Assembly (NCBI GenBank): GCA_903822075.1
Contig: CAIJNK010000008.1
Coordinates: forward strand, 21,961-85,960
DNA from: an uncultured bacterium
GTDB lineage: Bacteria; Patescibacteriota; Minisyncoccia; Phycocordibacterales; GWA1-40-21
Reading direction: 5' to 3'
Length of the DNA stretch: 64,000 nucleotides
Shown: positions 1,170 through 62,607 of the stretch, piece by piece
Layout of the letters: each line of letters begins with the position of its first letter
Position numbering within the stretch: the first letter of the stretch is position 1
Notes under the pieces: generated by a model
What the model was told of the DNA's origin: nothing
The model's database searches: none
The model's input: only the letters and a program-made list of their open reading frames with translations
Program-made: the position numbers and the translations under genes

Positions 1170-1213
1170 ATTTCCTCCTTTTTCAAAGATCTATCTACCG
1201 TCACAATACTCGC

Positions 1214-2927: not shown

Positions 2928-3971
2928 CTATTTCCGGGGCATAGCTCTGACAATACTGAGGAGTTGTTTTCCTTCAGGCTTATTCAAATCAAACTTATCT
3001 GTCGGACTAGGAATATGCTTAATTCTTTCTCTGATCACTTGGCTATCATAACCCATACTTTTAACTATCCCGATGAGCTCCGCCGAGGCGTTATCATACA
3101 TTTCCAAAGCGCGGCGGTAATTGCCAATCAAGTTTTGATCATTACCCTCGGCTTTTTCCAACTCAATGAATTTTTCCAAGAGTTCGGCGAAAAAGATGAG
3201 TTGTGAGACAGTCTCTCGGATGAAATAAAATTTCAAATCGCAATTATCAAGTCTCTCCCTCAAGTTGGAATCCTCTGCCCCTTCTTCATAGGCGGTAAAA
3301 TCATCCACGGAATCTTCTACCAAATCTCCCGAGCAAGCTAAAATAACGTGTGGAATTTTGAAATCTCTAAGCTTGATGTCTTTTGGACCTTGCAGGGTAC
3401 TAATTTCAGTCTGAAAATATTTCATCTTGGGGATGCGCCCTTGGGACAAGAAAACAATCTGATCAAATATTTTTCCTAGTGCCTCTTTTTGACTCAAAGT
3501 AAAGTCAATGGAAAAGCCAACACAACGGATATCTCTTTCATCTCGGATTTCCCTATCCGGTAAAAGCTGCAAGGCTCCATCTATTTTATTGAAATAATCA
3601 TCATAAAGACTGCTGTTAATGACTTTCACCCGCTCTCCAAGCCAAGCCAGTTCCCTAATCAGTTGCGGTAACATTGACTCCACCAAAGCGGCCATGGCAC
3701 TCACTTCCCCATTATCAATTTTCTCAACAACTTGGGACTTTTCCGTAAAAGCTCTCCTTCTTTCTTCCACTCGCTGTAAATCCGCCTCCACTTCGGCTTT
3801 AGGAAATAAATTTACCACCCGGCCGGCCATTGGCACGGAGTAATCAATAAAGTCCTTTGGGTCAATTCTTCTATTTTCCGGGTTGCCTTCGACTTTCTCT
3901 ATCAAGTCAAATAATTCCCGACCCACGGCACTGAGAGACCCCCCTACAACTGATAGATTTTCTTTAGACAT
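2928..3971 (-). CDS. hypothetical protein
   Basis: 347-aa ORF with no recognisable motif; fits the local gene-dense layout. Confidence 0.5.
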   Translation of the reverse strand: MSKENLSVVGGSLSAVGRELFDLIEKVEGNPENRRIDPKDFIDYSVPMAGRVVNLFPKAEVEADLQRVEERRRAFTEKSQVVEKIDNGEVSAMAALVESMLPQLIRELAWLGERVKVINSSLYDDYFNKIDGALQLLPDREIRDERDIRCVGFSIDFTLSQKEALGKIFDQIVFLSQGRIPKMKYFQTEISTLQGPKDIKLRDFKIPHVILACSGDLVEDSVDDFTAYEEGAEDSNLRERLDNCDLKFYFIRETVSQLIFFAELLEKFIELEKAEGNDQNLIGNYRRALEMYDNASAELIGIVKSMGYDSQVIRERIKHIPSPTDKFDLNKPEGKQLLSIVRAMPRK

Positions 3972-9743: not shown

Positions 9744-10496
9744 ATGTTTGATAAATATTTAAAAGAAATTGGTTTAAGTGAAAAAGAAGCGGAGGTATAT
9801 TTAGCCCTTTTACAAGGTGACAGTTTTTCGATATTGGAAATTGCCAAAAAAACAAAAATTAATAGAACAACAATTTATCCGGTAATCAAGTCATTATCGG
9901 AGAAAGGCTTGGTCAGCGAAACAACCACCAACACTAAAGTTCACTATCAAGCGGAATCTCCGGACCGCTTGGAAACATACATTGAAAGACAAAAAATTCT
10001 TTTGGAAGAAAATTCCAAGAAAATGAAGGACATCATACCCCAATTAAAAAGTACCAGGCGAGAAATGGGCGAGAGGCCGGTTGTAAAATATTTTGAGGGT
10101 AAAGAGGGAGTAATCAGCATTAATGAGGATATTTTTAAGGATCCGGAGCCACAAGAAAAGGCCTATATGATTTATTCCAAAGATTTGGTTGATGATGTGC
10201 TAAAAAACGAAGAAACGGCTAAGTTTAAGCATAAAAGGATTGACAGAAAGATCAAAGGCTTCTCCGTATACACCTATTCAAAAGGGGAAATACCCAGTGA
10301 TGAAACATCAACTAGAGTAAAAATTGACGGTAGCAAATATCCGATAAACTGCGATATCTCTGTCTACAAAGATAAGACCATAATTACAACCTTGAATAAA
10401 AAACTGGCGGGGATATACATTCAAAGCACCGATTTGGCTGAAACCTTAAAAAGTTTAATCAGAGTGATTCACGACTTAACAAACAACAAACAATAG
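9744..10496 (+). CDS. TrmB-like transcriptional regulator (paralog 2)
   Basis: HTH LKEIGLSEKEAEVYLALL; a 20-bp perfect palindrome lies upstream at 9613-9632; borders GC-rich island 1. Confidence 0.6.
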   Translation: MFDKYLKEIGLSEKEAEVYLALLQGDSFSILEIAKKTKINRTTIYPVIKSLSEKGLVSETTTNTKVHYQAESPDRLETYIERQKILLEENSKKMKDIIPQLKSTRREMGERPVVKYFEGKEGVISINEDIFKDPEPQEKAYMIYSKDLVDDVLKNEETAKFKHKRIDRKIKGFSVYTYSKGEIPSDETSTRVKIDGSKYPINCDISVYKDKTIITTLNKKLAGIYIQSTDLAETLKSLIRVIHDLTNNKQ

Positions 10497-11107: not shown

Positions 11108-11135
11108 TTGACAAAAATGTGAATATGAGTATACT
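11108..11135 (+). promoter_or_regulatory. sigma70-like promoter TTGACA-16-TATACT (island 1)
   Basis: Perfect -35 TTGACA at 11108-11113 and -10 TATACT at 11130-11135; an AGGAGG RBS lies downstream. Confidence 0.4.
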
Positions 11136-11176
11136 TACATCAGAAAGCAAAAAGTTCTCTCAAATAGGAGGTGGGT

Positions 11177-11434: not shown

Positions 11435-11576
11435 ACGAATGGCCCTCGGAGAAGAACATAGAAAAAGCTGGTTATGGAGATTGCTCGAATACATCTTCGA
11501 GTAAGACCAGCGAAAGGGTGGAGTAAACCATCCTGAAACTGAAACAAACAACGGCGGGTAGATGTTCTACCCGTCT

Positions 11577-11641
11577 ATCCGTCGCAAGATATGTATCTTG
11601 CCTGATGAGTCCTTCACTTAGACGTTCAGGACGAAACGGAA
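11577..11641 (+). ncRNA. hammerhead ribozyme motif HHR1 (type III)
   Basis: GUC cleavage triplet; stem I hairpin gcaagata-tgt-atcttgc; CUGAUGA; stem II gtcct…aggac; GAAAC; a 5-bp stem III (tccgt/acgga) pairs with the upstream flank. Confidence 0.8.
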
Positions 11642-11666
11642 AAGATCTTTGAGAAAATGAAAATAA

Positions 11667-11717
11667 CACCTGCGCCGGATTGTTCTGAAATTATTTCAGA
11701 TTGATCCGGTGCAGGTG
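11667..11717 (+). other. long near-perfect hairpin A in HHR1-downstream leader
   Basis: Arms cacctgcgccggat / atccggtgcaggtg with one G·U pair, plus an inner tctgaaat/atttcaga stem. Confidence 0.5.
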
Positions 11718-12068
11718 TGCGCAGACACCCTAGCATGTATGTGCGGTCCCTAAACTCATCAACTTGACATCCTAGGTTGGGTTGGGTATAGGGCTACCGA
11801 CAATTCTTTCACCTCAGGAAAAGTTTTCCTGTTGCCGAAGGAGGGCATGACCAAACTTCGTTTACCGACGAAGCGCCTTCTGGAAAGAATACGGGGTGTG
11901 TAACCGACAGAAGGAGCAAATTGCCTCTTTCTAAACGGGCGGTGCCGTTCGCTTACACATTTCATGGATATAGGGGCCTTTACTCCGGTCAGGGGTCAAG
12001 GTTAGTAAAGTCCAGCTGCGCAATTTTTCAAACATTAACCATAGACAAAACTCAACGAAAGGGAATAA

Positions 12069-12365
12069 ATGAGTACCAGTTATGGTCACGCAACAGTCGC
12101 TTTCCCGGGATTTCCACCAGTCACGGGAAACACGGTAAATGACCGGGTCCTCTTTGCGAATTATCACTGGGGGTATAAAGTTGAATCCTTTCTTCCAGTG
12201 AGAACTCTAAAGTTCGCCGACGGTACGAAACGCCGCCTCTCCAAAAAAGAGCGCAGCCGCTTACTCACACTTTCTCGAAAGTGGAACAAGCACGGCCAGT
12301 GGGATTATACCCAAAATAAACGCCACCGGCCGTTTCGAACCATCGAAGAGGTGAACGACTACTAG
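12069..12365 (+). CDS. hypothetical protein (weakly supported)
   Basis: 98-aa ORF between HHR1 and HHR2; weak SD. Confidence 0.3.
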   Translation: MSTSYGHATVAFPGFPPVTGNTVNDRVLFANYHWGYKVESFLPVRTLKFADGTKRRLSKKERSRLLTLSRKWNKHGQWDYTQNKRHRPFRTIEEVNDY

Positions 12366-12527
12366 CTTCCGGGAGATCTGAGAGACAGATCGCCATGAAC
12401 CGGACGAGGTAGAGAAAACTACCTTTGGAACAGAAGCGACTACGGGCACATCACTCTACATAATGTCCCGAAAGTAAAATCCGTGAAAAAAATCACGTTA
12501 ATCATCCGAATACGCAAGGTATTCGGG

Positions 12528-12578
12528 TCTGTCTCACGATGTGTGTCGTGACTGATGAGCTCAAAAGAGCGAAACAGA
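12528..12578 (+). ncRNA. hammerhead ribozyme motif HHR2
   Basis: GUC triplet; stem I tcacga-tgtgtg-tcgtga; CUGAUGA; stem II gctc-aaaa-gagc; GAAAC; 5-bp stem III; preceded by the 8-bp hairpin ccgaatac/gtattcgg. Confidence 0.8.
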
Positions 12579-12602
12579 AAAGATCTTTGAGAATAAATAT
12601 TT

Positions 12603-12665
12603 GTCCTGCGTCTAGATTAGAAATTATTACCTGATTTTTAATCTAGACGCAGGACTCTTGCAGGG
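12603..12665 (+). other. 17-bp perfect-stem hairpin B downstream of HHR2
   Basis: gtcctgcgtctagatta … taatctagacgcaggac with a 29-nt AU-rich loop. Confidence 0.55.
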
Positions 12666-12909
12666 GTTGGACGTCTTTTGTTCACCGGTTTTCGCGAGCC
12701 GGTAACCGAATAGTATAAGGTTCGGAGCAGAGATCAGTCTCTGATAGGGGCAATGGGTCACCCTCAACCTGCACGACATAGAGATGCCGATAGTTCAAGC
12801 CTGATGTGAAGATTGTGTGGCTCCATTGTGGGCCCCAGCTTTACAAAAACGGTTTGATCATCTCTCGAGAGGGTAGCATTATGTCTGACCAACATTCTGC
12901 CCCCTCTCG

Positions 12910-12977
12910 TTTCTGTACGGGAGTATGTTCTCTCGCTGATGAGTCCTTCGCTTAGGCGTTCAGGATGAAACAGAAAA
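12910..12977 (+). ncRNA. hammerhead ribozyme motif HHR3
   Basis: GUA triplet; stem I cgggag-tatgtt-ctctcg; CUGAUGA; stem II gtcc…ggat; GAAAC; 7-bp stem III; the 12912-12986 stretch is identical to the HHR4 copy. Confidence 0.8.
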
Positions 12978-13002
12978 GATCTTTCAAACAAAGGGAGCTA
13001 AT

Positions 13003-13584
13003 ATGTTTTCAAGCAAAATCGGCAAAGGCAAGTTGTCAGTGAAAAAAGAATTCGCTGTCACCCTGCCCAAGGAGGCCAAGAAGTGGGATGACTACCGGTC
13101 GGAGATCGTGGAAGCTTTCCATACCTTGGGTGGAGTGCGGGGGATCATGGGCGTGACCGGTCTGCGTCAGACTCAGGCGTATTTACTGGCGGCGAAATTT
13201 GGATTGATTATCGAAAAAGCCGTCCGAAGGAACAGCCAAGTTTACGCCAGACGACGGATGAACAACCTCGAGCACTTAAGAAATGTTTGGGGCTGGCGGC
13301 CGGGGGATGACACAGTAACTTTGAAAAATGGGCGACACTATGCCGCTAACCGCAGTTTTATGGCTGGCAGATCGCATTTCAAAGAAGGTGAAGTCTTCGT
13401 CCAGTACTCTCTGCCTACAGGGAAAGTCCGCGAGTATTTGCTGGCTCACGGAGTTAAATGGTGGATTGCCGGAGTGGAAATGGTTCCAGTCGATGCGGTC
13501 AAAGGAGAGGGGGCCTCTCTTTCCATGAAACTGGAGACTTCGCATTTTGCCAAGGTTGATTGTCAACCCATAAAACAATCTTGA
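13003..13584 (+). CDS. hypothetical protein (island 1)
   Basis: 193 aa; SD AAAGGGAG; lies immediately downstream of HHR3; GC-rich codon usage. Confidence 0.55.
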   Translation: MFSSKIGKGKLSVKKEFAVTLPKEAKKWDDYRSEIVEAFHTLGGVRGIMGVTGLRQTQAYLLAAKFGLIIEKAVRRNSQVYARRRMNNLEHLRNVWGWRPGDDTVTLKNGRHYAANRSFMAGRSHFKEGEVFVQYSLPTGKVREYLLAHGVKWWIAGVEMVPVDAVKGEGASLSMKLETSHFAKVDCQPIKQS

Positions 13585-13611
13585 GTTCCAGATACTCAAA
13601 AATAAAATCTG

Positions 13612-13675
13612 TCTGTACGGGAGTATGTTCTCTCGCTGATGAGTCCTTCGCTTAGGCGTTCAGGATGAAACAGAA
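13612..13675 (+). ncRNA. hammerhead ribozyme motif HHR4
   Basis: Exact repeat of the HHR3 core (13612-13686 matches 12912-12986). Confidence 0.8.
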
Positions 13676-13723
13676 AAGATCTTTCGGGAAAATTAGAAAC
13701 AAAACAGCAGAAGGAGAGAAGCT

Positions 13724-14026: not shown

Positions 14027-14053
14027 CCCCGAGCAGAAATGCTCGGGGTTTTC
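14027..14053 (+). terminator. rho-independent terminator closing island 1
   Basis: Stem ccccgagc / gctcgggg followed by TTTT. Confidence 0.55.
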
Positions 14054-14090
14054 TATACGAAAAAAGTTTGGAGTGTGCTAGACTTGAAAG

Positions 14091-26537: not shown

Positions 26538-27269
26538 TTAGCCTAATTTCTCATAGAAAGTTTGGAATATTTGCTTTTGGAACTCGGCGATCCTCTTACT
26601 CTCAATAATCATGACCGTTTCCGTATTGTAATCGATAAAAGCGACTTTATTACCATAGATTATCTCAGTAACATTATGTTCAAAAGGACCAAAATCGTTC
26701 GGCATAATTTTTGCAAAGCGATCCAGGCTTGGTCTTTTGTGCACTGCCGTCTGGGCGTTAGTAATCACTTCTCGCTGTAATTTCTTTTCGTCACGCATTT
26801 GACGATAAATCCTGGGCACATATTTATCTTTTTTTTCATTACCGTCCTTGTTTGAACTGTAACGGTAAAAGACATCCCCTTTTTTAAGACTGCGCACCAC
26901 ATCATCAAAAATTCTTTTAGTTCCATCTCTTCCTTCAAGAAATCTGATCTTCGGTTTTTTCTCACTGCTATTATAGGCGTCCTCCATGTCCGGCAGGATT
27001 TCAAAAAAATCAATTCGTAAATCGTCAAAAAGAGTTTCTAATCGATTGGGTGGTTCAGCGCCATAAACTACACTTTTTATTTTTTGCGTTTTAGTGACTA
27101 GTTTTTTTTCCATGAGGGAGGGTAGGGCCTTGTAAACCAGGGGACGATGGATTGAAGTTTTTTCGGAAATTTGGGAGATATTGGAGGTTCCCATCTCCAG
27201 CAAAGCCAGGTAAATGGCACTTTCATGCTTAGTCAGGCCTATTTTCTCCAAAATCTTGTTTTTATCCAT
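26538..27269 (-). CDS. TrmB-like transcriptional regulator (paralog 3)
   Basis: HTH LEKIGLTKHESAIYLALL; divergently oriented from island 2. Confidence 0.6.
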   Translation of the reverse strand: MDKNKILEKIGLTKHESAIYLALLEMGTSNISQISEKTSIHRPLVYKALPSLMEKKLVTKTQKIKSVVYGAEPPNRLETLFDDLRIDFFEILPDMEDAYNSSEKKPKIRFLEGRDGTKRIFDDVVRSLKKGDVFYRYSSNKDGNEKKDKYVPRIYRQMRDEKKLQREVITNAQTAVHKRPSLDRFAKIMPNDFGPFEHNVTEIIYGNKVAFIDYNTETVMIIESKRIAEFQKQIFQTFYEKLG

Positions 27270-27569: not shown

Positions 27570-27869
27570 ATGAACAGCCCCATCATGAGTCGATACCAGG
27601 CTTGGCGTGAGGACAGAAACGCTCGAATTGCTTTCCTGATGCTAAGGAAACAGTGGGCCAGAAACTTACTAAGGGAGGCGGCACTGACCGAACCCGGACA
27701 GGAGACTGAAGCCGAGTTCCGGGGAGCAGTCTACCGGGTCTGGATTGGCCCGCGAGGCGGAGTCAGAATCCACCAAACAAGAGTACTGCCAAAACCCCTG
27801 CCGCCGGCAACGCTGCCAAAAACTGAAAATCTGCCCATGCTCGCCGCCTTTCAAAGGGTTGGGCTATAA
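27570..27869 (+). CDS. hypothetical protein (first gene of island 2)
   Basis: SD ACAGGAGGGAACGAGG; GC-rich; 99 aa. Confidence 0.45.
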   Translation: MNSPIMSRYQAWREDRNARIAFLMLRKQWARNLLREAALTEPGQETEAEFRGAVYRVWIGPRGGVRIHQTRVLPKPLPPATLPKTENLPMLAAFQRVGL

Positions 27870-27898
27870 ACAACGGCGGGGATTAGGAACCCCCGCCT

Positions 27899-27960
27899 TC
27901 CGTCGCCAAGTGAAACTTGGCCTGATGAGTCCTTCACTTAGACGTTCAGGACGAAACGGA
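27899..27960 (+). ncRNA. hammerhead ribozyme motif HHR5
   Basis: GUC; stem I gccaag-tgaaa-cttggc; CUGAUGA; stem II as in HHR1; GAAAC; 5-bp stem III; preceded by the hairpin ggcgggg/ccccgcc. Confidence 0.8.
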
Positions 27961-27999
27961 TAAAGGTCGAAAGATTATCAAAATAACTAAAAATAAATA

Positions 28000-28371
28000 A
28001 TGCTCAAAAAAGTAAAAACATTGAGAACGCCGGCGTCGCATGCGGAATACGAACGCTACCAAAAAACGCCAAAGTTCCCGGCTTGTTACATCTGCACGGC
28101 CAAGACGATAAAAACTTATGAGAAATGGAAGATGATTGAAAACGAGTTTCCTTACAACGAAATAGCCACGAAAAACGACATGATTGTCCCGATCAGGCAC
28201 ACCACTGAAAACGACTTGACGGAGGAAGAACTAAGGGAGTTTACAAAGATAAAAGAAGACATCAACGACAAATACGACATGATTCTGGAAAATACCCACA
28301 AACAAAAATCCATCCCCGGGCACTTCCACTTGCACCTCTTACAAATAAAAGAGCGGGAAATTGAAATTTAA
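28000..28371 (+). CDS. HIT-family (histidine triad)-like protein
   Basis: HFHLHLL histidine-triad motif; N-terminal CYIC. Confidence 0.5.
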   Translation: MLKKVKTLRTPASHAEYERYQKTPKFPACYICTAKTIKTYEKWKMIENEFPYNEIATKNDMIVPIRHTTENDLTEEELREFTKIKEDINDKYDMILENTHKQKSIPGHFHLHLLQIKEREIEI

Positions 28372-28400
28372 CGGCCGAGAGGCTGTTTTTTAGACCCAAA

Positions 28401-28450
28401 CTGTCTCGGAATGTGTATTCCGGCTGATGATTCCGAAAGGATGAAACAGG
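28401..28450 (+). ncRNA. hammerhead-like motif HHR6 (variant, U·U at 10.1/11.1)
   Basis: GUC; stem I cggaat-gtgt-attccg; CUGAUGA; stem II ttcc-gaaa-ggat; GAAAC; 4-bp stem III. The conserved G10.1-C11.1 pair is replaced by U/U, so it may be inactive. Confidence 0.5.
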
Positions 28451-28478
28451 TAAGTTCATTAACAACAGGAGATATAAA

Positions 28479-28700: not shown

Positions 28701-28732
28701 CAATACACCCCGCATCTTAATTGATGCGGGTA

Positions 28733-28782
28733 CTGTCCGAGAGTGTGTACTCTCGCTGATGAGTCCAAAAGGACGAAACGGA
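28733..28782 (+). ncRNA. hammerhead ribozyme motif HHR7
   Basis: GUC; stem I cgagagt-gtgt-actctcg; CUGAUGA; stem II gtcc-aaaa-ggac; GAAAC; preceded by the hairpin cccgcatc/gatgcggg. Confidence 0.8.
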
Positions 28783-28798
28783 AAAGTTCTTTGAAAAA

Positions 28799-28859
28799 GT
28801 TGCCAAGAGATTTGAGAACTTGATTTGTGATTAATTGATTTTTCAAATCTCTTGGCAAC
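28799..28859 (+). other. 17-bp perfect-stem hairpin C in 5' leader of REC-domain gene
   Basis: gttgccaagagatttga … tcaaatctcttggcaac with a 27-nt AU-rich loop. Confidence 0.55.
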
Positions 28860-28892
28860 AATAAACAAAAAGAAAGGAAACGAGGTAGAGGT

Positions 28893-30332: not shown

Positions 30333-30403
30333 CGGCGACACTTGCGCCTATAAGTTGTAAGACTTATTAAAACTTACGACCTGCATCTTGATCGATGCAG
30401 GTT

Positions 30404-30452
30404 CTGTCCGAGAGTGTGTACTCTCGCTGATGAGTCCAAAAGGACGAAACAG
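30404..30452 (+). ncRNA. hammerhead ribozyme motif HHR8
   Basis: Same core as HHR7 with a different stem III (tctg/caga versus HHR7 tctg/cgga); preceded by the hairpin cctgcatc/gatgcagg. Confidence 0.8.
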
Positions 30453-30502
30453 TAGTTCTTTGAAACAAACAAGTCCCGACAGGGACGGAAAGGTGGAAAC
30501 AG

Positions 30503-30949: not shown

Positions 30950-30990
30950 CGGAGGCATGGTTAGAGGTTCCATTACAAAAACCTCACACT

Positions 30991-31036
30991 AGCAAAGTGT
31001 GTACTTTCGCTGATAAGTCCAGAAGTATGAAACAGA
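30991..31036 (+). ncRNA. degenerate hammerhead relic HHR9
   Basis: CUGAUAAG (G8 changed to A), stem II disrupted (gtcc-agaa-gtat), no U at 16.1; still aligned with HHR7/8 and followed by the same leader. Confidence 0.4.
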
Positions 31037-31068
31037 AAAGTTCATAAACAACAAGATATGGAGATTAA

Positions 31069-31638
31069 ATGTCTAGTATATTGATGAAGTATGAATCCAG
31101 TTTCCGTGACGGTGAGAGCCTTGAGAATTTCGAGCTCTGTCTTCTACCTGGTGAAGTATGGCTTACCACTGAGCCGGAAATGATGACTTGGCTTGAAGCA
31201 ATAGAGATTGCTGGAGCTAAATCAAACTTACGCCTGCCACATTACGCTGATCTAATAAGGGCGGTAGAAAGTTTGTCGAAAGATAGCCGGCTTGGCGAGC
31301 AGTTCTCTCCACTTGAAGATGGAGAGTTTTGGACAATAGGTTCGGAGGGATATGAAGCAAATCAGCCATTCGCCTGTTGTGTTCAAGCCACACACAGTAG
31401 CTATGACTCACACAGCCTAAAGACTTGCCTAAAATGGGTAAGGTTCATCAAACGAGGTAAGGCAGAAACATCATTTGAAATCCAAAAGAAAAAGGAGTTG
31501 AGAGAAAGATGGATGCATGAGGTTAATCTTCACCGGAAAGTATCCGATATTCTTGATTTAGATCAAGTTGAAATTGGTACCATACATGGACAATTTCAAC
31601 TTGAATCAAAATCGCAAATTCGCAAAAGGCTGCAGTAA
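31069..31638 (+). CDS. hypothetical protein
   Basis: 189 aa; SD GGAG upstream of the ATG. Confidence 0.45.
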   Translation: MSSILMKYESSFRDGESLENFELCLLPGEVWLTTEPEMMTWLEAIEIAGAKSNLRLPHYADLIRAVESLSKDSRLGEQFSPLEDGEFWTIGSEGYEANQPFACCVQATHSSYDSHSLKTCLKWVRFIKRGKAETSFEIQKKKELRERWMHEVNLHRKVSDILDLDQVEIGTIHGQFQLESKSQIRKRLQ

Positions 31639-31711
31639 TGTCAATGCGGCGCAGAGAAAGATAAAAAGTGGAGACAACCACCTATCAAAAACCCTGGGGA
31701 ATTTACCCAGG

Positions 31712-31764
31712 TTCTGTCCGGGAGTGTGTACTCTCGCTGATGAGTCCAAAAGGACGAAACGGAA
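31712..31764 (+). ncRNA. hammerhead ribozyme motif HHR10
   Basis: GUC; stem I cgggagt-gtgt-actctcg with a G·U pair; CUGAUGA; gtcc-aaaa-ggac; GAAAC; 6-bp stem III; preceded by the hairpin cctggg/cccagg. Confidence 0.8.
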
Positions 31765-31795
31765 AAAGGTCGAAAAATTATTAAAGGAGAAAGTG

Positions 31796-32950
31796 ATGAC
31801 AACAAAAAAAGAGAAAACAATTCTGTGCGACGCCAAGGCTTTCTGCTTTGGGCCCATATCGAAACTCTTAACGATTAGCGAGAGACTCTTTGAAAAGTAT
31901 CGAATTGTGTTTCTGGTCTCCCGGACAAGCAAGATGCTTTCCGCGCATGCTTGCGCCGATGAGATAGTGGAATGTGATACGGAAAACATCACCGATCTAT
32001 TGGCACACGAGGCCTTGTTTAAGTCGGCCGACCTGTTTGTAAACATTATGAATCCGCTCTCGGCACGTTTTGCGGCCGAAAGAGGATTACCGATGGTCCA
32101 GATAGACAGCTTGTTCTGGATGTGGGAACAGATAGCGGAAGAAATTCTCAGCTCAGAGATTTATTTCATTCAGGACTTTGAAGGAGTCGCTGAGCAAATG
32201 AAAAAATTCTCTGGCCGGATAAAGAATCCGGTTCTGGTCGGTCCAATCATAAAAGAGGTTCCTAATGGCGTACCGAAGAAGAACAAACTGCTCATTAATT
32301 TGGGCGGGATGGAATCGGCTTCGATAAAGGTGGGGGTTAATACGGAGTACCCTTACGTAATAATGCGACTCATCAATGATTTGCTGGCAAAAGGCCACGA
32401 CTTTGCTGAGATTGTCTGTGCGGGTAACCGAGACATTCTGGAAGAGATGAAAAGGAGGACACCGAACGGGGCTATTCATTACCAGTTCTTTGAACATAAT
32501 GATTTTCTCCGGCAGATAGCGGAATCAAGGTTGATCATATCGTCTCCGGGACTGACAACCGCCTTCGAGGTTTTTAATTCGGGGACACCGGTGTTCTTCA
32601 TACCGCCCCAGAATTACAGCCAATATTGGAATCTTGATAGTTTTATCAAGAACGGTGTGGCGGAAGAAGCAATAAACTGGAATCACCTCTACTCGGAGGT
32701 AAGCATTCTGAAAAACGAGGAACAAAAGAAAGGGATTGAAAAAGTACTTCAATGTACCCGCCAATTCGAAAAGGATCCAAAAGCTTGGTCCAAAGTGGAG
32801 GGAGGTGTAAAACACTTTCTCACTCTCCCAACAGATGAATTGGAGGGGGTGGGGAAGCGTCAGAAGAAGTACTTCGAAACGCTCGGTGGTAACGGTACAG
32901 AGGTCATAGTCAAAGGTATTATAGACTTACTCGAGAAGAGGAAAGTATAA
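31796..32950 (+). CDS. GT-B fold glycosyltransferase-like protein (MurG/GT28-like C-terminal domain)
   Basis: The start is placed at the ATG after SD AAAGGAGA, because the longer ORF from 31568 runs through HHR10 and the upstream gene. C-terminal LIISSPGLTTAFEVFNSGTPVFFIPP resembles the nucleotide-sugar-binding half of MurG-like enzymes. Confidence 0.5.
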   Translation: MTTKKEKTILCDAKAFCFGPISKLLTISERLFEKYRIVFLVSRTSKMLSAHACADEIVECDTENITDLLAHEALFKSADLFVNIMNPLSARFAAERGLPMVQIDSLFWMWEQIAEEILSSEIYFIQDFEGVAEQMKKFSGRIKNPVLVGPIIKEVPNGVPKKNKLLINLGGMESASIKVGVNTEYPYVIMRLINDLLAKGHDFAEIVCAGNRDILEEMKRRTPNGAIHYQFFEHNDFLRQIAESRLIISSPGLTTAFEVFNSGTPVFFIPPQNYSQYWNLDSFIKNGVAEEAINWNHLYSEVSILKNEEQKKGIEKVLQCTRQFEKDPKAWSKVEGGVKHFLTLPTDELEGVGKRQKKYFETLGGNGTEVIVKGIIDLLEKRKV

Positions 32951-38347: not shown

Positions 38348-39094
38348 ATGACTAATATGTACGAAGAAACATTGGAAATGCTAGGTTTATCACCAAACGA
38401 GGCTAAAATATACAAGGCTTTATTGGAGCTAAAAAATGCCAACATCTGGAATATCAGCACTCATGCCCAAATACACAGAAGAAATACTTATGATGCCATC
38501 CAACGGCTAATGAACAAAGGTTTGGCCTATCAAATACTACCCAAAAAGACATTAACTTATGCTCCGGTCCATCCAGAAAAACTTCGTGAAATTGTTGAAG
38601 AAAAACAAAAAGAGCTTGAATCAGTGATGCCCGGCCTGGTCAGGCGATTCAGTGAAATAAATATAGAACAAACTATTTATGTCTATAAAGGCATAGGTGG
38701 TTTAAAAAACTTCATAGATCTTATCATCAGAGAGAAAAGGGATATCTACGGCATTGGGAGCAAGGGAACATGGTTTGACCCAAGAATAAGAAACTTTGCA
38801 ACCAGAGCTCAGAAGAAATACATAAAGGCGGGGATAACAAGCCATTTGATATATGATCAGAATCTAGAGGGACATCCTGAGGTGATAAAAATAGTCGGTG
38901 GAAATAAAAAATTTCTGCCACAAAAATATTGCGGTGGTTCGTCCGTTGATATATTTGGCGATTATGTGGCAATTTACTCCGGAGTCGGCGTAAAATCGCT
39001 TGAACAAGATATCACGATTTTTATATTGAAAGATAAGACTCTGGCTAAAGATTATATGAGGTGGTGGCACTTCATCTGGGATATGCTCCCATAG
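38348..39094 (+). CDS. TrmB-like transcriptional regulator (paralog 4)
   Basis: HTH LEMLGLSPNEAKIYKALLEL; a -10 TATAAT lies 17 nt upstream. Confidence 0.6.
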   Translation: MTNMYEETLEMLGLSPNEAKIYKALLELKNANIWNISTHAQIHRRNTYDAIQRLMNKGLAYQILPKKTLTYAPVHPEKLREIVEEKQKELESVMPGLVRRFSEINIEQTIYVYKGIGGLKNFIDLIIREKRDIYGIGSKGTWFDPRIRNFATRAQKKYIKAGITSHLIYDQNLEGHPEVIKIVGGNKKFLPQKYCGGSSVDIFGDYVAIYSGVGVKSLEQDITIFILKDKTLAKDYMRWWHFIWDMLP

Positions 39095-44916: not shown

Positions 44917-45045
44917 TTTCTCCTCCTTTTTCGCTTGCTCTTAGCCTTTTGGCCAAATTCTGCCGAGCAATAGGCAAGTCAAAGATCAAAACTACTAACT
45001 GGAAGTTAAGCATAAATGACGTTAAAAGTCAATAGATAAAAAATA

Positions 45046-54709: not shown

Positions 54710-56527
54710 ATGGGTATACTTGATTTTTTAAAAAAGAAAAAAGCCAGCGAACCGGAACTTACTTCCTTCTTGCCCCAGGAAATATACAATTCTGGCGTCT
54801 TGGAATTGCAAGATATTATTGCTCCCTCAGCCCTAAAGATCACCCCCAACCAAATAAACCTGGGAGAAAAAATTGCTCGAACTTTTTTTGTCATTTCTTA
54901 TCCTCGTTTTCTGACCGAAAGCTGGTTTGCGCCAATCATAAACTTGGATAAAATTTTTAATATTTCCATCTTCGTCCACCCAATCGAAACGGCCAAAATA
55001 TTGCGGACATTCCAGAAAAAAGTGGCCGAGGTCCAAAGCCAGATCAACCAAAGAGAAGGGCGGGGACTGGTCAGAGATCCTATGCTGGATACCGCTTATC
55101 AAGATCTCGAATCCTTGCGTGATAACTTGCAACAAGCCCAGGAAAAGCTTTTTGATGTTGGTGTGTATATTACCCTTTATGGTAATAGTGATGAAGACCT
55201 AAACAAACTGGAATCAGAAATAAAATCCCTGCTCGAATCGAAATTAGTTTACTTAAAACCAGCTCTTTTCCAGCAAGAACAAGGCTACAAAAGCATCCTG
55301 CCGATTGCGGATGATCAATTGGGTATCCACTCCAAGCTCAACTCCTCACCCCTGTCCAGTATTTTTCCGTTTGTCTCCTTCGATTTAACGTCCGACAAAG
55401 GTATTCTCTACGGGATTAACCGCCACAATAACAGCTTGGTTCTTTTTGATCGCTTTTCCTTGGACAACTATAACTCCGTTACCTTTGCCAAGTCCGGTTC
55501 CGGTAAAAGCTACGCCACTAAGTTGGAAATCTTGCGTTCCCTGATGTTTGAAACGGAAGTGATCGTAATTGACCCGGAAAAGGAGTACCAATACCTATCG
55601 GAAGCCGTTGGTGGGAAAAATTTCAATATCTCCCTTAACTCAACAAACCATATCAACCCATTTGACCTGCCTTTTCCACGGGATGACGAGCCGGCAGCTG
55701 ATATTTTGCGTTCCAACATTATTAACTTGGTGGGCTTGTTCCGGATTATGTTTGGCGGTCTGACACCGGAAGAAGATGCGATCGTTGACCGCGCTATCAG
55801 TGAAACTTACGCCCTTAAAGACATCACACCCGAATCAGATTTCTCCAATTTGGAACCGCCATTGTTGTCAGATTTTGAGCTAGTTCTTTCTGGGATGGAA
55901 GGGGCCGAAGGTTTGGTTCAGAAATTATCAAAATATACCCGTGGTTCTTGGGCAGGCTTTATAAACAGACCTACTAACGTTGATATTAATGCCAAGTTTG
56001 TGGTTTTCTCCATTCGAGATATGGAAGACGAGCTCAAGCCGGTCGCCATGTATATTATCACTCACTATATTTGGACCGCCGTCAGACGTGAGAAAAAGAA
56101 GAGATTACTGGTGATTGATGAGGCTTGGTGGATGATGAAGACCGAAGACACCGCCTCTTTCTTGTTCAGTTTGGCCAAAAGAGGCCGTAAATATTGGCTG
56201 GGGCTGGCTACCATCACTCAGGATGTGGATGACTTCTTGCGCTCACCTTATGGTTTGCCGATCGTGACCAACTCTTCCATCCAGATTCTTCTGAAACAAA
56301 GCCCGTCAACTGTCGATAGCCTGCAAAAAACTTTCAACTTAACTGACGAAGAGAAATTCCTGCTCTTGGAGTCTGATGTGGGGGAGGGGTTGTTCTTTGT
56401 TGGGCAAAAACACGTCGCTATCAAGGTTATTGCCTCTTACACCGAGGATCAGATCATCACTTCTGACCCATCACAATTATTGGCCATCAAAAGATCCCGA
56501 GAAGAGCTGAACAACAGTGGACAATAA
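54710..56527 (+). CDS. VirB4/TrbE-family type IV secretion ATPase (C-terminal ATPase part)
   Basis: Walker A FAKSGSGKSYAT and Walker B LLVIDEAWWMM. Confidence 0.8.
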   Translation: MGILDFLKKKKASEPELTSFLPQEIYNSGVLELQDIIAPSALKITPNQINLGEKIARTFFVISYPRFLTESWFAPIINLDKIFNISIFVHPIETAKILRTFQKKVAEVQSQINQREGRGLVRDPMLDTAYQDLESLRDNLQQAQEKLFDVGVYITLYGNSDEDLNKLESEIKSLLESKLVYLKPALFQQEQGYKSILPIADDQLGIHSKLNSSPLSSIFPFVSFDLTSDKGILYGINRHNNSLVLFDRFSLDNYNSVTFAKSGSGKSYATKLEILRSLMFETEVIVIDPEKEYQYLSEAVGGKNFNISLNSTNHINPFDLPFPRDDEPAADILRSNIINLVGLFRIMFGGLTPEEDAIVDRAISETYALKDITPESDFSNLEPPLLSDFELVLSGMEGAEGLVQKLSKYTRGSWAGFINRPTNVDINAKFVVFSIRDMEDELKPVAMYIITHYIWTAVRREKKKRLLVIDEAWWMMKTEDTASFLFSLAKRGRKYWLGLATITQDVDDFLRSPYGLPIVTNSSIQILLKQSPSTVDSLQKTFNLTDEEKFLLLESDVGEGLFFVGQKHVAIKVIASYTEDQIITSDPSQLLAIKRSREELNNSGQ

Positions 56528-56577
56528 TCACTTGTTCTTGGAAATTAACGAACTGGTGTGATATAATTGGTATTAGT

Positions 56578-57582
56578 ATGATAAAGAAAATTTTTAGCGG
56601 CTGGCTAATAATAACAGCTTTTCTCCTCGTTCTTTCTCCCATGATTTCTTCGGCGCAAAGCATCCCAACCGAAGGAGTAATCAGCATCACCATGAAGCCG
56701 GAAAATCCGGCACCCTTGCAAACCGTGACCCTAACTTTAGAGAGCTACACTTATGATTTGGACCGGTCTAAGATAACCTGGTCAGTTGACGGTCAAAATA
56801 AAACGACCGATCTCGGCCTTAGGGAATTCACCGTTCAAGCTGGTAAAAATGGTCATATGACTACGGTAAAGGCCCAGGTACAAACTCAACAAGATGGCAC
56901 AGTGGAGACAGAAATATCGTTTATCCCCTCGGCAGTGGATCTGATTTATGAATCACAATCCTATACACCACCATTTTATAAAGGCCGGTCTTTAAATCCA
57001 AACCAAGGAAAAGTCCTGGTGGCTGCTATTCCCGAACTTATCAAAACGACTGGCGAAAAAATCAGTTCTAAAAGTATTATTTATTCCTGGAAAAAGAACG
57101 GAACGATAGATCAGTCTGCCTCGGGTATGGGGAAGGATACTTTTACTTTTACCGGATCTGTTCCAATCAGAGACTCGGTAGTGGAAGTGACCGCTTCATC
57201 TTTGGACGGCACACTCACGGCTTCAAAAGAAATAACGATTACCAATGTCGACCCGAAAATAATTTTTTATGAAGATAGCCCGGTCTACGGAATTATGATG
57301 AACAAGGCCATAAAAAGTACGGTTAAAATGCTTACTGACGAGTTCAGTATTTTTACGGCACCATATTTCTTTAGCACCGGATATGCCAACACACAGGACT
57401 TGGATTATACCTGGAGCATGAATGGAAAAGATATTGACAGCCAAGACCCAAAAAATTCCTTCACCGCCAGAGTAGATAAAGCCGGTTCAGGAACGGCAAA
57501 TATAAGTCTGAAAATAAGCAACAACCTCCGAATATTCCAAATTGCAACCAACAGTTATTCGATTAATTTTGAAAAACAATAA
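56578..57582 (+). CDS. secreted hypothetical protein
   Basis: Signal peptide ending SSAQS; 334 aa. Confidence 0.45.
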   Translation: MIKKIFSGWLIITAFLLVLSPMISSAQSIPTEGVISITMKPENPAPLQTVTLTLESYTYDLDRSKITWSVDGQNKTTDLGLREFTVQAGKNGHMTTVKAQVQTQQDGTVETEISFIPSAVDLIYESQSYTPPFYKGRSLNPNQGKVLVAAIPELIKTTGEKISSKSIIYSWKKNGTIDQSASGMGKDTFTFTGSVPIRDSVVEVTASSLDGTLTASKEITITNVDPKIIFYEDSPVYGIMMNKAIKSTVKMLTDEFSIFTAPYFFSTGYANTQDLDYTWSMNGKDIDSQDPKNSFTARVDKAGSGTANISLKISNNLRIFQIATNSYSINFEKQ

Positions 57583-57583
57583 A

Positions 57584-57895
57584 ATGGCCTTAGGATATAC
57601 ACCTTTAGAAAATGGGGTTTTTAATGATTTTAACACTGGAGTAAGCTCAAATAATCAGTTGGGCACTTTCCTTGGTCAGGCTTTTCAGTTTGGGCTAGCG
57701 GTGGCTGCCGCTTTGGCAGTAGTGATGATTGTCTGGGGTGGGGTAGAGATAATGCTTTCGGAATCCATGTTTAAGAAAGAAGATGGCAAGAAGAAAATTC
57801 AAGATGCCATCTGGGGGCTGCTGTTGGCGCTGGTTTCCTGGCTAATCCTCTTCACCATCAATCCGGATATTTTGAACTTTAAAATAACAAATTAA
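57584..57895 (+). CDS. pilin-like small membrane protein (VirB2/TrbC-like, putative)
   Basis: The start is set at the ATG 1 nt after the upstream stop; two hydrophobic helices. Confidence 0.4.
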   Translation: MALGYTPLENGVFNDFNTGVSSNNQLGTFLGQAFQFGLAVAAALAVVMIVWGGVEIMLSESMFKKEDGKKKIQDAIWGLLLALVSWLILFTINPDILNFKITN

Positions 57896-57899
57896 TTTT

Positions 57900-59153
57900 A
57901 TGATGTCTAAAAAAACAGCCATAATACTTATCCTTGTTGTCTTCCTTGGCGCTTTGGGCGCTTTGGTTTATTTCTATTTTTCTTTAAATAACCATCCTGC
58001 AGTGACCTCAAAACCCGCAAGCACGACGGTTGATGTCTACGATCAATTTGGCATTAGGCCAGTTGAGGACAATCCCTTTTCCGCCACTAGCTCTCAAGAA
58101 ATAACTATCGAACCCCAAACACAACCGGTATCTCTAGACAAACTTCGCCAAATCACTCAAGATCCCGTCTCCGGTTACTCAGTGATTGAGGATTTAAAAA
58201 ACAAACAGACAGACATCCACTACATCCTGCGCGCCAACGGCAACATTTACGAATCTTACACTGATTCTTTGGAAAGTAAGCGCCTTTCCATCACAACTAT
58301 TCCCAAAGTCTATGAATCAAACTGGTTGCCAGACGGCAAGAGATTGATTATTAGGTATTTACGCGGTAACACGGAAGATATTGATACTTTCTCCGTAAAA
58401 ATTAACCCCGCCACCACTACTTTAAATACTTTCGAGGGTGGGGTAGATGGAAATCATCTGGTTCAAAATATTAACGGGTTAGCTATAAACCCGGCTGGCG
58501 ATAAGATCTTTTACCTTACAAATAATCTAGTAGGCGCAAATGGTTATATCGACAAGCCAGATGGGCTTAGTGGAAAGCTGCTACTCAAAACTCCACTGAC
58601 GGAATGGACTGTTTCTTGGCCAAAAGAGGAAACGATTGCTTTAAATACTGCTCCGGCAGCCAATATTGCCGGTTATCTATATTTCGTAAATAGCAAAACA
58701 GGAGATTTTACTCATATTTTAGGAGGAATAAACGGCTTAACCACGAAAACAAATAAGACCGCCACTGAAGTTCTTTACTCAGACAGTACCGGAGCCGCCC
58801 CTAAACTTTATCTATACGATGTAAAAAGTGGGGGAGTTAAAACTCTTCCTTGGAATACCCTACCAGAAAAATGTCTCTGGAGTGAGGCAGATTCCAAGAT
58901 TGTTTATTGTGCCGTTCCAAAGAGCTTCCCTGAGGGTGATTATCCCGATGCTTGGTACCAAGGTTTGGTTAATTTTACCGATGATATTTGGATGATAAAT
59001 ACCGACACCATGGCCTCCACCTTAGTTATGGATTTAGAAAAAGAAACAAACAATGACTTGGATATTACCGATCTAAAAATGGATAGTAAGGGCAACTTCC
59101 TCTTCTTTGTGAATAAAACAGACCTGACTCTGTGGAGTTTGAATTTAAAATAA
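57900..59153 (+). CDS. membrane-anchored hypothetical protein
   Basis: N-terminal TM helix followed by a beta-rich ectodomain; 417 aa. Confidence 0.45.
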   Translation: MMSKKTAIILILVVFLGALGALVYFYFSLNNHPAVTSKPASTTVDVYDQFGIRPVEDNPFSATSSQEITIEPQTQPVSLDKLRQITQDPVSGYSVIEDLKNKQTDIHYILRANGNIYESYTDSLESKRLSITTIPKVYESNWLPDGKRLIIRYLRGNTEDIDTFSVKINPATTTLNTFEGGVDGNHLVQNINGLAINPAGDKIFYLTNNLVGANGYIDKPDGLSGKLLLKTPLTEWTVSWPKEETIALNTAPAANIAGYLYFVNSKTGDFTHILGGINGLTTKTNKTATEVLYSDSTGAAPKLYLYDVKSGGVKTLPWNTLPEKCLWSEADSKIVYCAVPKSFPEGDYPDAWYQGLVNFTDDIWMINTDTMASTLVMDLEKETNNDLDITDLKMDSKGNFLFFVNKTDLTLWSLNLK

Positions 59154-59157
59154 GAGA

Positions 59158-59622
59158 CTAGATGGCTAGATACTTTACTTTTACTCGTCTTTCTTTGCCA
59201 ATACCAATAGATTCAGTACTGATATCAGGCTGGCCAGCGAGGGTGCTGTGCACGATCATTCTTTCATAAGAAGACATTGGTTCCATAAGAACATCTGTTT
59301 TTAAGTTCTTGGCCTCTTCTGCGGCGTTGAGGGCTTTCATTTTTATTTTGGCATCCACTTTGGATTGTAAATCATTGATATCAATAGTGCATTTAAAAAT
59401 TTCCTCACCAGGGCGGGAATCCTTATTAAACATCCTTTTAAGTAGATAGACGAGGTCGCGCGTCAAATCATCTCTCTCCGCTGATACCTTCTCGAATTCC
59501 ACGCTCTTCACAGCAAAAACATGACCTCTTTTTTCATCCACAGCATAGCTCACAGATTCTGTTGGTATCCCAATGAGGGAAAAAATGTCTTCTATTGTTT
59601 TTTTGGCTTTTTCAGCATCCAT
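59158..59622 (-). CDS. khpB: Jag/KhpB-like RNA-binding protein (KH + R3H)
   Basis: R3H segment YERMIVHSTLA; conserved position next to yidC. Confidence 0.65.
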   Translation of the reverse strand: MDAEKAKKTIEDIFSLIGIPTESVSYAVDEKRGHVFAVKSVEFEKVSAERDDLTRDLVYLLKRMFNKDSRPGEEIFKCTIDINDLQSKVDAKIKMKALNAAEEAKNLKTDVLMEPMSSYERMIVHSTLAGQPDISTESIGIGKERRVKVKYLAI

Positions 59623-59635
59623 ATTGTTATGTTAA

Positions 59636-60382: not shown

Positions 60383-60413
60383 GGGGAGAGTATACCTTAT
60401 ATGGTCCCCAAAC

Positions 60414-60755: not shown

Positions 60756-60762
60756 AGTGAGT

Positions 60763-62564: not shown

Positions 62565-62607
62565 CTTGTAATAGTAATAGTCTTTATAAAAATTAGAAAA
62601 TAAAAAA

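Follow-up and report, generated by a model that had tools for sequence, protein, structure and literature searches.

Type III hammerhead ribozymes flanked by an upstream hairpin and a boxA-like leader in two operons of a Patescibacteria genome

Results

Hammerhead ribozymes and their operons

In this study, we examined a 64,000-nucleotide (nt) stretch of DNA, called the window below, from an uncultured bacterium of the Patescibacteriota (Minisyncoccia, Phycocordibacterales, GWA1-40-21; assembly GCA_903822075.1, contig CAIJNK010000008.1, forward-strand positions 21,961 to 85,960). The window carries genes for PNPase, a CCA-adding/poly(A)-polymerase-family enzyme, KsgA, UvrD, a XerC/D-like recombinase, tRNAs and type IV secretion, together with dnaA-dnaN-rnpA-yidC, and it is part of a cellular genome, not of a phage. 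A permissive Rfam scan and pattern searches located ten units of the type III hammerhead ribozyme (HH1 to HH10), all on the + strand and in two groups (Table 1). These units are the intercistronic modules of two polycistronic operons, at ~11.1-14.05 kb and 27.5-33 kb, whose downstream genes showed no promoters of their own. The ribozymes commonly lie between a GC-rich hairpin upstream and a short boxA-like leader downstream.

Nine of the ten units have an intact CUGANGA...GAAA core, a GUC or GUA cleavage site and three helices, with stems I and II closed and stem III open, which is the type III layout; HH9 is the exception. Their scores against RF00008 (23.8-45.3 bits) all lie under the gathering threshold of 48.5 bits of that model, which was built mainly on viroid and plant sequences, and two relatives at one surveyed locus (L117) exceed it (52.1 and 48.8 bits). 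Stems I, II and III are paired at 96-99% over 129 sequences and 13 of 15 pairs change on both sides, in an alignment that was fitted to the model. In HH9, the core at 31010 reads CUGAUAAG (G8 to A), there is no GUC and stem II is broken; at 33.5 bits with model R1 (Table 1) it is the weakest match in the window. Its hairpin is the weakest of the set and its boxA-like element has no U7, and it looks as if all three parts of the module are decaying together after the loss of cleavage.

Relatives were collected with a query of the hammerhead core and loop letters only, containing neither hairpin nor leader. With one genome per species, this gave 119 loci, mostly from metagenome-assembled genomes (MAGs) of Patescibacteria, and the same pattern scan of IMG/VR gave 120 viral loci; L-numbers (L049, L092, L117 and so on) label the surveyed loci. 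A structural finder defined 113 non-redundant type III hammerheads in about 75 genomes and another 152 in viral contigs. Two Saccharibacteria MAGs, at L049 716-2481 (-) and L117 4458-4756 (+), have arrays in which twister-P1 and type III hammerhead ribozymes alternate, and both ribozyme classes there share the flanking hairpin and the boxA-like element.

Two ribozymes deserve separate mention. In a longer sequence context, the minimum free energy fold of HH1 pairs GGCGGGUAGAUG with CGUCUAUCCGUC (12 bp), burying the cleavage site and the stem III strand (11553-11583, +); the tail of HH1 repeats the 3' arm of its own hairpin (CUACCCGUC, then CUAUCCGUC), and the predicted pairing may be an inactive alternative conformation. 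In L092, a hammerhead at ~3500-3508 (-) that is syntenic with HH1/HH2 has CCGAUGAG in place of CUGAUGAG (U4 to C), with otherwise perfect helices, hairpin and boxA; it is either inactive or a natural core variant.

Hairpin upstream of the cleavage site

In the window, seven simple GC-rich hairpins end 5-8 nt ahead of the cleavage site, with folding energies of -6.1 to -16.5 kcal/mol and z scores against dinucleotide shuffles that fall at -4.7 to -4.9 in four cases and at -1.9 to -2.6 in the other three. An earlier interpretation made by a model from the letters and open reading frames (ORFs), referred to here as the sequence-only reading, had listed these seven, and all are present within 1-2 nt of where it had placed them. 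It had also assigned a hairpin to every ribozyme, which holds for the seven simple cases and for a branched hairpin at HH3, and does not hold for HH4 and HH6 or for the relatives, where the share with an adjacent hairpin is ~50% among genome hammerheads and 64% among viral ones. The branched hairpin of HH3 has a counterpart in L092. The HH5 hairpin begins 5 nt past the stop codon at 27867-27869. A compensatory change from C-G to U-A separates the HH7 and HH8 hairpins, and the HH1 hairpin differs from its homologue in L078 by two fully compensatory pair changes.

The hairpin stems have no common sequence among the relatives, and their position recurs. The 28 nt abutting stem III fold with a mean of -8.8 kcal/mol, compared with ~-4.2 kcal/mol at all other offsets to 130 nt upstream, and 48% of these abutting segments lie at or below -8 kcal/mol versus ~13% elsewhere (n = 113). 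The best upstream hairpin ends 5-7 nt from the cleavage position in 52 of 95 strong genome hairpins and in 86 of 124 viral ones, the rest being spread evenly. On the other side, the hairpin begins 1-14 nt past a stop codon in the genomes and 3-13 nt past one in the viral contigs, and it almost never lies within an ORF. It is commoner where an ORF ends within 200 nt upstream, both in the genomes (48/56 versus 35/56, p = 0.009) and in the viral contigs (89/94 versus 35/52, p = 2e-5). All five twister-P1 units, in L049 and L117, likewise have a hairpin, which ends 0-1 nt before the ribozyme.

These hairpins resemble intrinsic terminators in their GC-rich stem-loop and lack the U-tract directly 3' of the stem. 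Within the 8 nt past the stem, 86 of the 94 viral cases and 42 of the 62 from genomes have only 1-3 T, and we therefore do not regard the hairpins as intrinsic terminators; on the + strand, the module hairpins were not called as terminators, whereas the structure at 14027 was. Their position, the link to an upstream ORF, the missing U-tract and their occurrence before twisters together connect the hairpin to the cleavage event and to the upstream gene's 3' end. It is thus likely a 3'-end element of the upstream RNA, and the cap proposed in the sequence-only reading is, on sequence grounds, the best-supported account of it.

BoxA-like element downstream of the ribozyme

The sequence-only reading had described AAAAG(A/T)TCTTTGA as shared by most copies. 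This string is exact in HH1, HH2 and HH7; the other units have variants, namely TAGTTCTTTGA in HH8, AAAAGATCTTTC(A/G) in HH3 and HH4, GTTCATTAA in HH6 and GTTCATAAA in HH9. The perfect palindrome AAAGATCTTT that it pointed out is real in HH1-HH4 and absent from the other units. Among relatives, the GATC form accounts for 10 of 54 elements and GTTC for 40, which makes the A at position 3 of HH1-HH4 a minority variant and the palindrome incidental; as a functional feature it was also rejected because a 10-nt palindrome with a loop of 2 nt is unable to fold on itself.

The relatives share the conserved core G-(U>A)-U-C-U-U-U-(G>C,A)-A, behind which the sequence is A-rich (position weight matrix aaa(a/u)GUUCUUUGAAAaa, core GUUCUUUGAAA). 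It occurs 0-8 nt past stem III in 54 of the 113 genome hammerheads versus 6-7 of 113 control windows. By host, it is specific to Patescibacteria, following 40 of 85 hammerheads there (~47%), 2 of 15 from other bacteria and none of the 152 from viral contigs. While the spacing to the ribozyme is fixed at 0-8 nt, the distance to the Shine-Dalgarno sequence (SD) varies from 0 to >400 nt, and after HH1 and HH2 the element precedes long untranslated, strongly structured RNA. The leader is predicted to be more single-stranded than the sequence that follows it (0.51 versus 0.41, p = 0.018).

The element is also found where no hammerhead precedes it. A strict 9-mer lies 7-16 nt past the -10 of the near-perfect promoters heading five ribozyme arrays (5 versus 0.9 expected, p = 0.0025), and the site at 11154 is placed in the same way as these promoter-proximal 9-mers (L002, L035, L083, L116 and L117); its C at position 7 is shared by 4 of 54 family members. 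The motif directly follows three of the five twisters. About half of the 53 strict 9-mers in Patescibacteria loci lie at segment starts, and the rest are near the chance expectation of ~20. Placed after promoters, hammerheads and twisters alike, the element thus stands where each RNA segment begins, irrespective of how the beginning comes about. Two more exact copies of GATCTTTGA, at 1183-1191 (-) and 44979-44987 (-), stand without a ribozyme in 5' untranslated regions (UTRs) after promoter-like sites, one ahead of a coaE operon and the other ahead of a hypothetical gene; they may be boxA or chance.

The 16S-23S spacer and the rRNA leader are the classical boxA positions. Listeria and Priestia have exact GTTCTTTGA in the 16S-23S spacer, and Tsukamurella has it in the rRNA leader; we take these sites to be boxA as established knowledge (Berg et al. 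1989; Arnvig et al. 2008). The core fits the boxA consensus GYTCTTTAANA (PMC5725501), to which L014, L049 and L084 have perfect matches. The boxA nucleotides G2, C5 and U6 contact NusB (PMC3177189); they are invariant in our motif set, in which the search pattern itself fixed them. As expected of boxA, the element stands near the transcript 5' end and is repeated after processing sites. We consider it probable, from sequence resemblance and placement, that the leader is a boxA, a loading site for NusB/NusE.

Several other identities were considered and dropped. Intramolecular partners of the leader (stem III mimicry, loop I/II, the A-rich flank or a CUUUG-AAA-CAAAG hairpin) amounted, by inspection, to at most 3-5 weak, unconserved pairs. 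A promoter -35 element has no -10 at the right distance, and the SD often follows directly. An integron attC site does not fit either: GTTCTTT has C where GTTRRRY needs R, and AAACAAC is unlike RYYYAAC.

HH5 and HH10 have a second motif, AAAGGTCGAAA(G/A)ATTAT, as the sequence-only reading had seen. The AGGTCGAAA-GATTAT after these two units resembles the 3' end of the preceding hammerhead (AGGACGAAACGGAT) and was found in this genome only; to judge from the letters it may be a partial tandem duplication. Many phage hammerheads (L147, L150, L161 and others) have, in place of boxA, a recurrent A/U-rich leader, (A/U)AACUUAAUAAAACUUA...AUG, which suggests that post-ribozyme leaders are lineage-specific.

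Untranslated structured RNAs

The segment between HH2 and HH3 (12534-12917, +; 384 nt) has no ORF and folds at -149 kcal/mol (z = -6.9 versus shuffles). It is conserved in L092 at 3110-3520 (-), with compensatory changes in at least three helices, including a 17-bp hairpin at 12591-12663, and it matched no Rfam family. We regard it as a candidate new structured RNA that would be released by two hammerheads. A 16-mer search for relatives in viral contigs gave 25 matches, all in unrelated coding DNA and attributable to chance, and Rfam found nothing there.

After the boxA-like element of HH1, ~420 nt (11653-12068, +) hold no convincing ORF and are strongly structured (z = -5.6 for 11584-12080). 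This stretch opens with a long near-perfect hairpin at 11666-11718, and a 98-aa ORF starts only at 12069. A perfect 17-bp hairpin, GTTGCCAAGAGATTTGA...TCAAATCTCTTGGCAAC, at 28797-28861 (+) lies between the boxA-like element of HH7 and the start of a 479-aa gene, an arrangement shared by the long hairpins that follow HH1 and HH2. Rfam matches to miRNA families at 12585-12665, 28797-28861 and 2554-2675 were far under threshold and reflect merely long hairpins.

Genome setting

G+C content in both hammerhead stretches is 0.46-0.55, compared with ~0.40 elsewhere, and most genes of the two groups have no Pfam or PHROG match. A TrmB-family regulator adjoins each group. The 64 kb contain four such regulators (1260-2021, 9744-10496, 26538-27269 (-) and 38348-39094), two of which directly flank the hammerhead islands, and the intergenic region beside the third is conserved in L092. 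At 54710-63708 lies the dnaA-dnaN origin region with rnpA and yidC, adjoined by type IV secretion genes (TraG-like ATPase, T4SS pilin). Sequence past the window ends gave dnaA, dnaN, rnpA, yidC and type IV secretion genes, and neither rRNA nor nus genes. Positions 31000-32900 of the window match, at 100% identity, a 1,901-nt contig from the MAG AM-lipid-01-D7_bin-1316. A metagenome search with the 479-aa protein for orthologues returned one locus, L120, where the gene ends in an ordinary terminator with no ribozyme; the window has a hairpin and a hammerhead at that place.

Table 1 Features of the two hammerhead groups. Cleavage positions are predicted; core C is the C of the CUGAUGA core; R1 is a covariance model that includes the hairpin.
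Feature	Position	Strand	Remarks
Sigma-70-type promoter, TTGACA-16-TATACT	11108-11135	+	head of cluster 1; 11/12 consensus matches
BoxA-like GTTCTCTCA	11154-11162	+	18 nt after -10; just before SD/ATG (11177) of first cluster 1 gene
HH1 upstream hairpin, 10 bp, loop UGU, 8-nt tail	11553-11575	+	-16.5 kcal/mol, z -4.8
HH1 type III hammerhead	11578-11640	+	cleavage after C11583; core C 11602; RF00008 39.6 bits, model R1 80.9 bits
BoxA-like GATCTTTGA after HH1	11644-11652	+	then ~420 nt without convincing ORF
HH2 upstream hairpin, core 12506-12526	12504-12528	+	-13.3 kcal/mol, z -4.8
HH2 type III hammerhead	12528-12578	+	cleavage after C12533; core C 12552; model R1 85.3 bits
BoxA-like GATCTTTGA after HH2	12582-12590	+	5' end of untranslated structured RNA
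HH3 branched 44-nt hairpin, CGAGAGGG...CCCTCTCG	12866-12909	+	abuts HH3; ends 8 nt before cleavage
HH3 type III hammerhead, GUA site, G10.1-U11.1 wobble	12910-12976	+	cleavage after A12917; core C 12936
BoxA-like GATCTTTCA(AACAAAG) after HH3	12978-12986	+	16 nt before ATG 13003
HH4 weak AU hairpin only	13581-13599	+	18 nt upstream
HH4 type III hammerhead	13612-13674	+	cleavage after A13617; core C 13636; no adjacent hairpin
BoxA-like GATCTTTCG after HH4	13678-13686	+	
Canonical intrinsic terminator, 9-bp GC stem + TTTTCT	14027-14056	+	closes cluster 1; genome's true terminator type
HH5 upstream hairpin, 7 bp GC, 7-nt tail	27875-27897	+	-15.5 kcal/mol
HH5 type III hammerhead	27899-27960	+	cleavage after C27904; core C 27922; RF00008 37.1 bits; model R1 72 bits
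Alternative motif AAAGGTCGAAAGATTAT after HH5	27962-27978	+	not boxA-like: G at key U6
Terminator-like hairpin + T6 upstream of HH6	28370-28393	+	after gene 28000-28371; ~12-18 nt before cleavage site
HH6 type III hammerhead (CUGAUGAU, U-U at 10.1/11.1)	28401-28449	+	cleavage after C28405; core C 28424; model R1 55.1 bits
BoxA-like GTTCATTAACAAC after HH6	28454-28466	+	one mismatch to GYTCTTTAANA
HH7 upstream hairpin CCCGCATC/GATGCGGG, 7-nt tail	28709-28730	+	-15.7 kcal/mol, z -4.9
HH7 type III hammerhead	28733-28781	+	cleavage after C28737; core C 28756; RF00008 41.6 bits; model R1 104.7 bits
BoxA-like GTTCTTTGA after HH7	28786-28794	+	identical to rRNA-operon boxA core of Listeria, Priestia, Tsukamurella
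HH8 upstream hairpin, core CCTGCATC/GATGCAGG, 5-7 nt tail	30378-30403	+	-16.1 kcal/mol, z -4.7
HH8 type III hammerhead	30404-30452	+	cleavage after C30408; core C 30427; RF00008 45.3 bits; model R1 94.1 bits
BoxA-like GTTCTTTGA(AACAAAC) after HH8	30455-30463	+	
HH9 decayed module	30964-31048	+	weak hairpin 30964-30985; dead hammerhead, core C 31010 (degenerate); decayed boxA GTTCATAAA 31040-31048
HH10 upstream hairpin CCTGGG/CCCAGG, 7-nt tail	31693-31711	+	-11.6 kcal/mol
HH10 type III hammerhead	31712-31764	+	cleavage after C31718; core C 31737; RF00008 45.3 bits; model R1 91.1 bits
Alternative motif AAAGGTCGAAAAATTAT after HH10	31765-31781	+	

Discussion

We lean, with modest confidence, towards a model in which hairpin, ribozyme and boxA together punctuate these operons. 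The layout would be a promoter and a boxA, then repeats of a gene or RNA, a hairpin, a ribozyme and a boxA, and finally a terminator. The 3' UTR of the upstream gene holds a stable stem-loop that has no U-tract and abuts the 5' strand of the outer helix of the ribozyme, and the ribozyme (type III hammerhead, or twister-P1 in some relatives) would cut 5-8 nt past the stem-loop. The upstream RNA would then end in the hairpin and a very short tail with a 2',3'-cyclic phosphate, an end that 3' exonucleases would degrade poorly. [quoted passage not shown] A PNPase gene lies in the same window as the modules. We infer cleavage in vivo, stabilisation of the upstream fragment and binding of Nus factors from the arrangement of the parts.

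The ribozyme body would remain at the 5'-hydroxyl end of the downstream RNA, and within 0-8 nt a single-stranded G(U/A)UCUUU(G/C)A(AA) would serve as boxA and nucleate a processive antitermination complex, with NusB-S10 binding GUUCUUUGA RNA. In the rRNA antitermination complex, NusB keeps hold of boxA on the polymerase and the growing transcript forms a loop (PMC10250234). Cleavage on the downstream side of boxA would part the boxA-Nus complex from RNA polymerase, and for this reason each post-cleavage segment would have its own boxA to re-arm the polymerase. Once re-armed, the polymerase would continue into the following cistron or untranslated structured RNA in spite of Rho, and past the stem-loops as well. 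Precedents exist in the second boxA in the rRNA spacer, past the pre-16S cut, described by Pfeiffer and Hartmann (1997) as cited in PMC12541390, and in the shielding of long untranslated transcripts such as CRISPR arrays from Rho by boxA (PMC7665894). We put forward re-arming after cleavage tentatively, as an idea that falls somewhat short of even chances. With the same reserve, co-transcriptional self-cleavage could reset antitermination, and operons of Patescibacteria could consist of ribozyme-delimited units, each with its own boxA start and 3' cap hairpin; the ribozyme helices, which occupy the place that boxB has in rRNA leaders, may replace boxB.

A number of observations weigh against this model. 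HH4 and HH6 have no adjacent hairpin, and HH5 and HH10 share a different motif that breaks U6. Hairpin and leader are each present in only about half of the Patescibacteria hammerheads, and their co-occurrence is statistically independent (odds ratio 1.76, p = 0.14), which means that the cassette is not indivisible. Since the alignment was fitted to the model, the recovery of 129 hammerheads by a covariance model that includes the hairpin, with changes on both sides in all eight hairpin pairs, is taken as support and nothing stronger. Phage hammerheads without boxA indicate that re-arming is not a general necessity. The rRNA comparison drew on operons of Bacillota and Actinomycetota, and the boxA of the host itself may differ; rRNA probes over all surveyed loci found no rRNA operon. 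The 64-kb window contains none of nusB, nusE and rho, whose presence in this genome we presume from their general conservation. BoxA near a ribosome-binding site (RBS) can repress instead of antiterminating, as at suhB (PMC5725501; PMC12360218). The modular cassette of the sequence-only reading is thus upheld in its three real parts and not in their obligate union; the hairpin and the leader, which it proposed to seek beside hammerheads of other Patescibacteria, do recur, each in about half of the units and with the palindrome as a minority form. Taken as a whole, what it observed is confirmed in part, and its interpretation is supported in part.

The hairpin could also be explained without any effect on RNA ends. 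As a structural helper, it would prevent mispairing of the coding sequence and stack coaxially on a short stem III (4-6 bp), with no role in stability. The geometry suits this account: in 23/62, the most frequent case, the hairpin meets the outermost stem III pair with a gap of 0 nt, most others lie within ±1-2 nt, and the twister hairpins, flush with the P1 strand, are equally well explained by stacking. In viral contigs, moreover, stem III is shorter where a hairpin is present (5.15 versus 5.94 bp, p = 0.0009), which fits a helper and adds to the points against our model. This signal is weak, and compensation for a short stem III is unsupported in the genomes, where the lengths are equal with and without the hairpin (4.98 versus 4.96, p = 0.89). 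A pure folding aid would not need an upstream ORF, on which the hairpin depends, and one-third to one-half of apparently intact ribozymes have no hairpin. The short tail is predicted by an exonuclease block as well, and the two roles are compatible; a helper role alone seems unlikely to us. If the hairpins were instead leaky intrinsic terminators or pause sites, the ribozyme would trim read-through transcripts to about the same 3' end. The GC-rich stems are terminator-like, UUCG or GAAA tetraloops are frequent in phage examples, window tails such as UUCUGUC are moderately U-rich, a true hairpin with T6 stands ahead of HH6, and the L120 orthologue has its normal terminator at the corresponding position. 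The T counts given above speak against it, as do the many tails that read ACCGUC, GCCGUC or CCCGUC, and the same genome terminates with a clear T-tract at 14027. Efficient termination would also silence the downstream genes, because they have no promoters of their own. We consider leaky termination very improbable.

For the leader, the sequence-only reading had proposed a standard 5' untranslated leader that feeds the next RBS, to which a translational enhancer acting possibly via the AAAGATCTTT palindrome can be added. The motif is A/U-rich and mostly unpaired, and in most coding cassettes (HH3, HH6 and HH8, for example) it lies between the ribozyme and the SD/ATG; boxA-like elements beside an RBS can alter translation, as at suhB (PMC5725501). 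Its spacing is fixed to the ribozyme and not to the SD, it stands ahead of the untranslated RNAs after HH1 and HH2, its palindromic form is in the minority and can form no hairpin, and rRNA operons, which are untranslated, have the identical core in their boxA. With its occurrence after promoters and twisters, boxA accounts better for the element, and we regard a plain translational leader as quite improbable. A more radical alternative is that ribozyme-flanked segments are excised and circularised like retrozymes or viroid-like RNAs, the shared stem III letting the 3' tail pair with the 5' hammerhead and the hairpin and leader being parts of the junction. Hammerhead-type cleavage leaves ends that are joined by RtcB-type ligases. 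The predicted fold of the 384-nt HH2-HH3 segment pairs its 3' tail UUUCUGU with ACAGAAA of the 5' hammerhead, rebuilding a nicked hammerhead, and stem III (CUGU/ACAG) is unusually uniform over units and genomes. Common descent may explain that uniformity, most segments are ordinary protein-coding cistrons with an SD, and Perreault et al. sought circular or spliced products of clustered bacterial hammerheads and found none (PMC3088659). Circularisation appears extremely improbable.

The punctuation model, which we continue to prefer, joins several known kinds of element. In the early region of T7, as in REP elements, a 3'-terminal stem-loop shields the upstream mRNA from 3' exonucleases. At the T7 RNase III sites, too, an intercistronic endonucleolytic cut gives the upstream mRNA a terminal 3' stem-loop; there a host enzyme cuts within the stem, whereas here a cis-acting ribozyme would cut beside it and leave a 2',3'-cyclic phosphate. 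In synthetic insulators of the RiboJ type, a ribozyme before a cistron standardises the 5' end and its body stays on the downstream RNA. RiboJ adds a hairpin that exposes the RBS, in contrast to the natural module with its 3' cap for the upstream RNA and its candidate Nus-factor loading site. The hairpins share with intrinsic terminators a GC-rich stem-loop directly past the stop codon; where those have a U-tract, here the stem III strand follows and the downstream genes rely on read-through. The HH2-HH3 segment resembles a retrozyme or viroid-like cassette in having two hammerheads and ends that are predicted to pair.

Clustered hammerheads that flank genes are known from prophages and bacteria; a role in polycistronic processing was proposed, and cleavage of such arrays was shown in vitro (Perreault et al. 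2011, PMC3088659). Like the units described here, they are hammerheads of one orientation between single genes or small blocks of varying identity. Those clusters lie in prophages of cultivated bacteria, while ours lie in islands on the chromosome of a Patescibacteria-type bacterium, and in relatives twisters are interspersed among them; an upstream stem-loop and a conserved downstream element, both present here, are unmentioned in that report. With the boxA of rRNA operons, CRISPR arrays and suhB, our element shares its core, its promoter-proximal position, its recurrence after a processing site and its place at the head of long untranslated RNAs. It differs from the boxA of rRNA operons in following self-cleaving ribozymes inside mostly protein-coding operons, and no boxB or boxC partner was identified. 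Our literature search returned no paper that ties hammerheads to Patescibacteria or boxA to natural self-cleaving ribozymes. The ribozyme, the 3' stabiliser stem-loop and the boxA each belong to a familiar kind; what is new is that they are regularly combined.

The purpose of self-cleaving ribozymes, of which bacteria and phages have thousands, was still called undefined in a 2019 review (PMC6765202). A stop codon, a hairpin without a U-tract and a cut 5-8 nt further on form the majority architecture of type III hammerheads in phage contigs and occur in about half of those in Patescibacteria, and also with twisters. This architecture predicts capped upstream mRNAs of differential stability, and in Patescibacteria an rRNA-type boxA on the downstream product would link ribozyme cleavage to Nus-factor antitermination. 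If the model is true, it would assign bacterial hammerhead and twister ribozymes a specific task, namely to let adjacent RNAs meet separate fates without loss of processive transcription, and it would offer a natural design for insulated, processive synthetic operons. Transcription control in this phylum, on which hardly any experiments exist, would also come into view for the first time.

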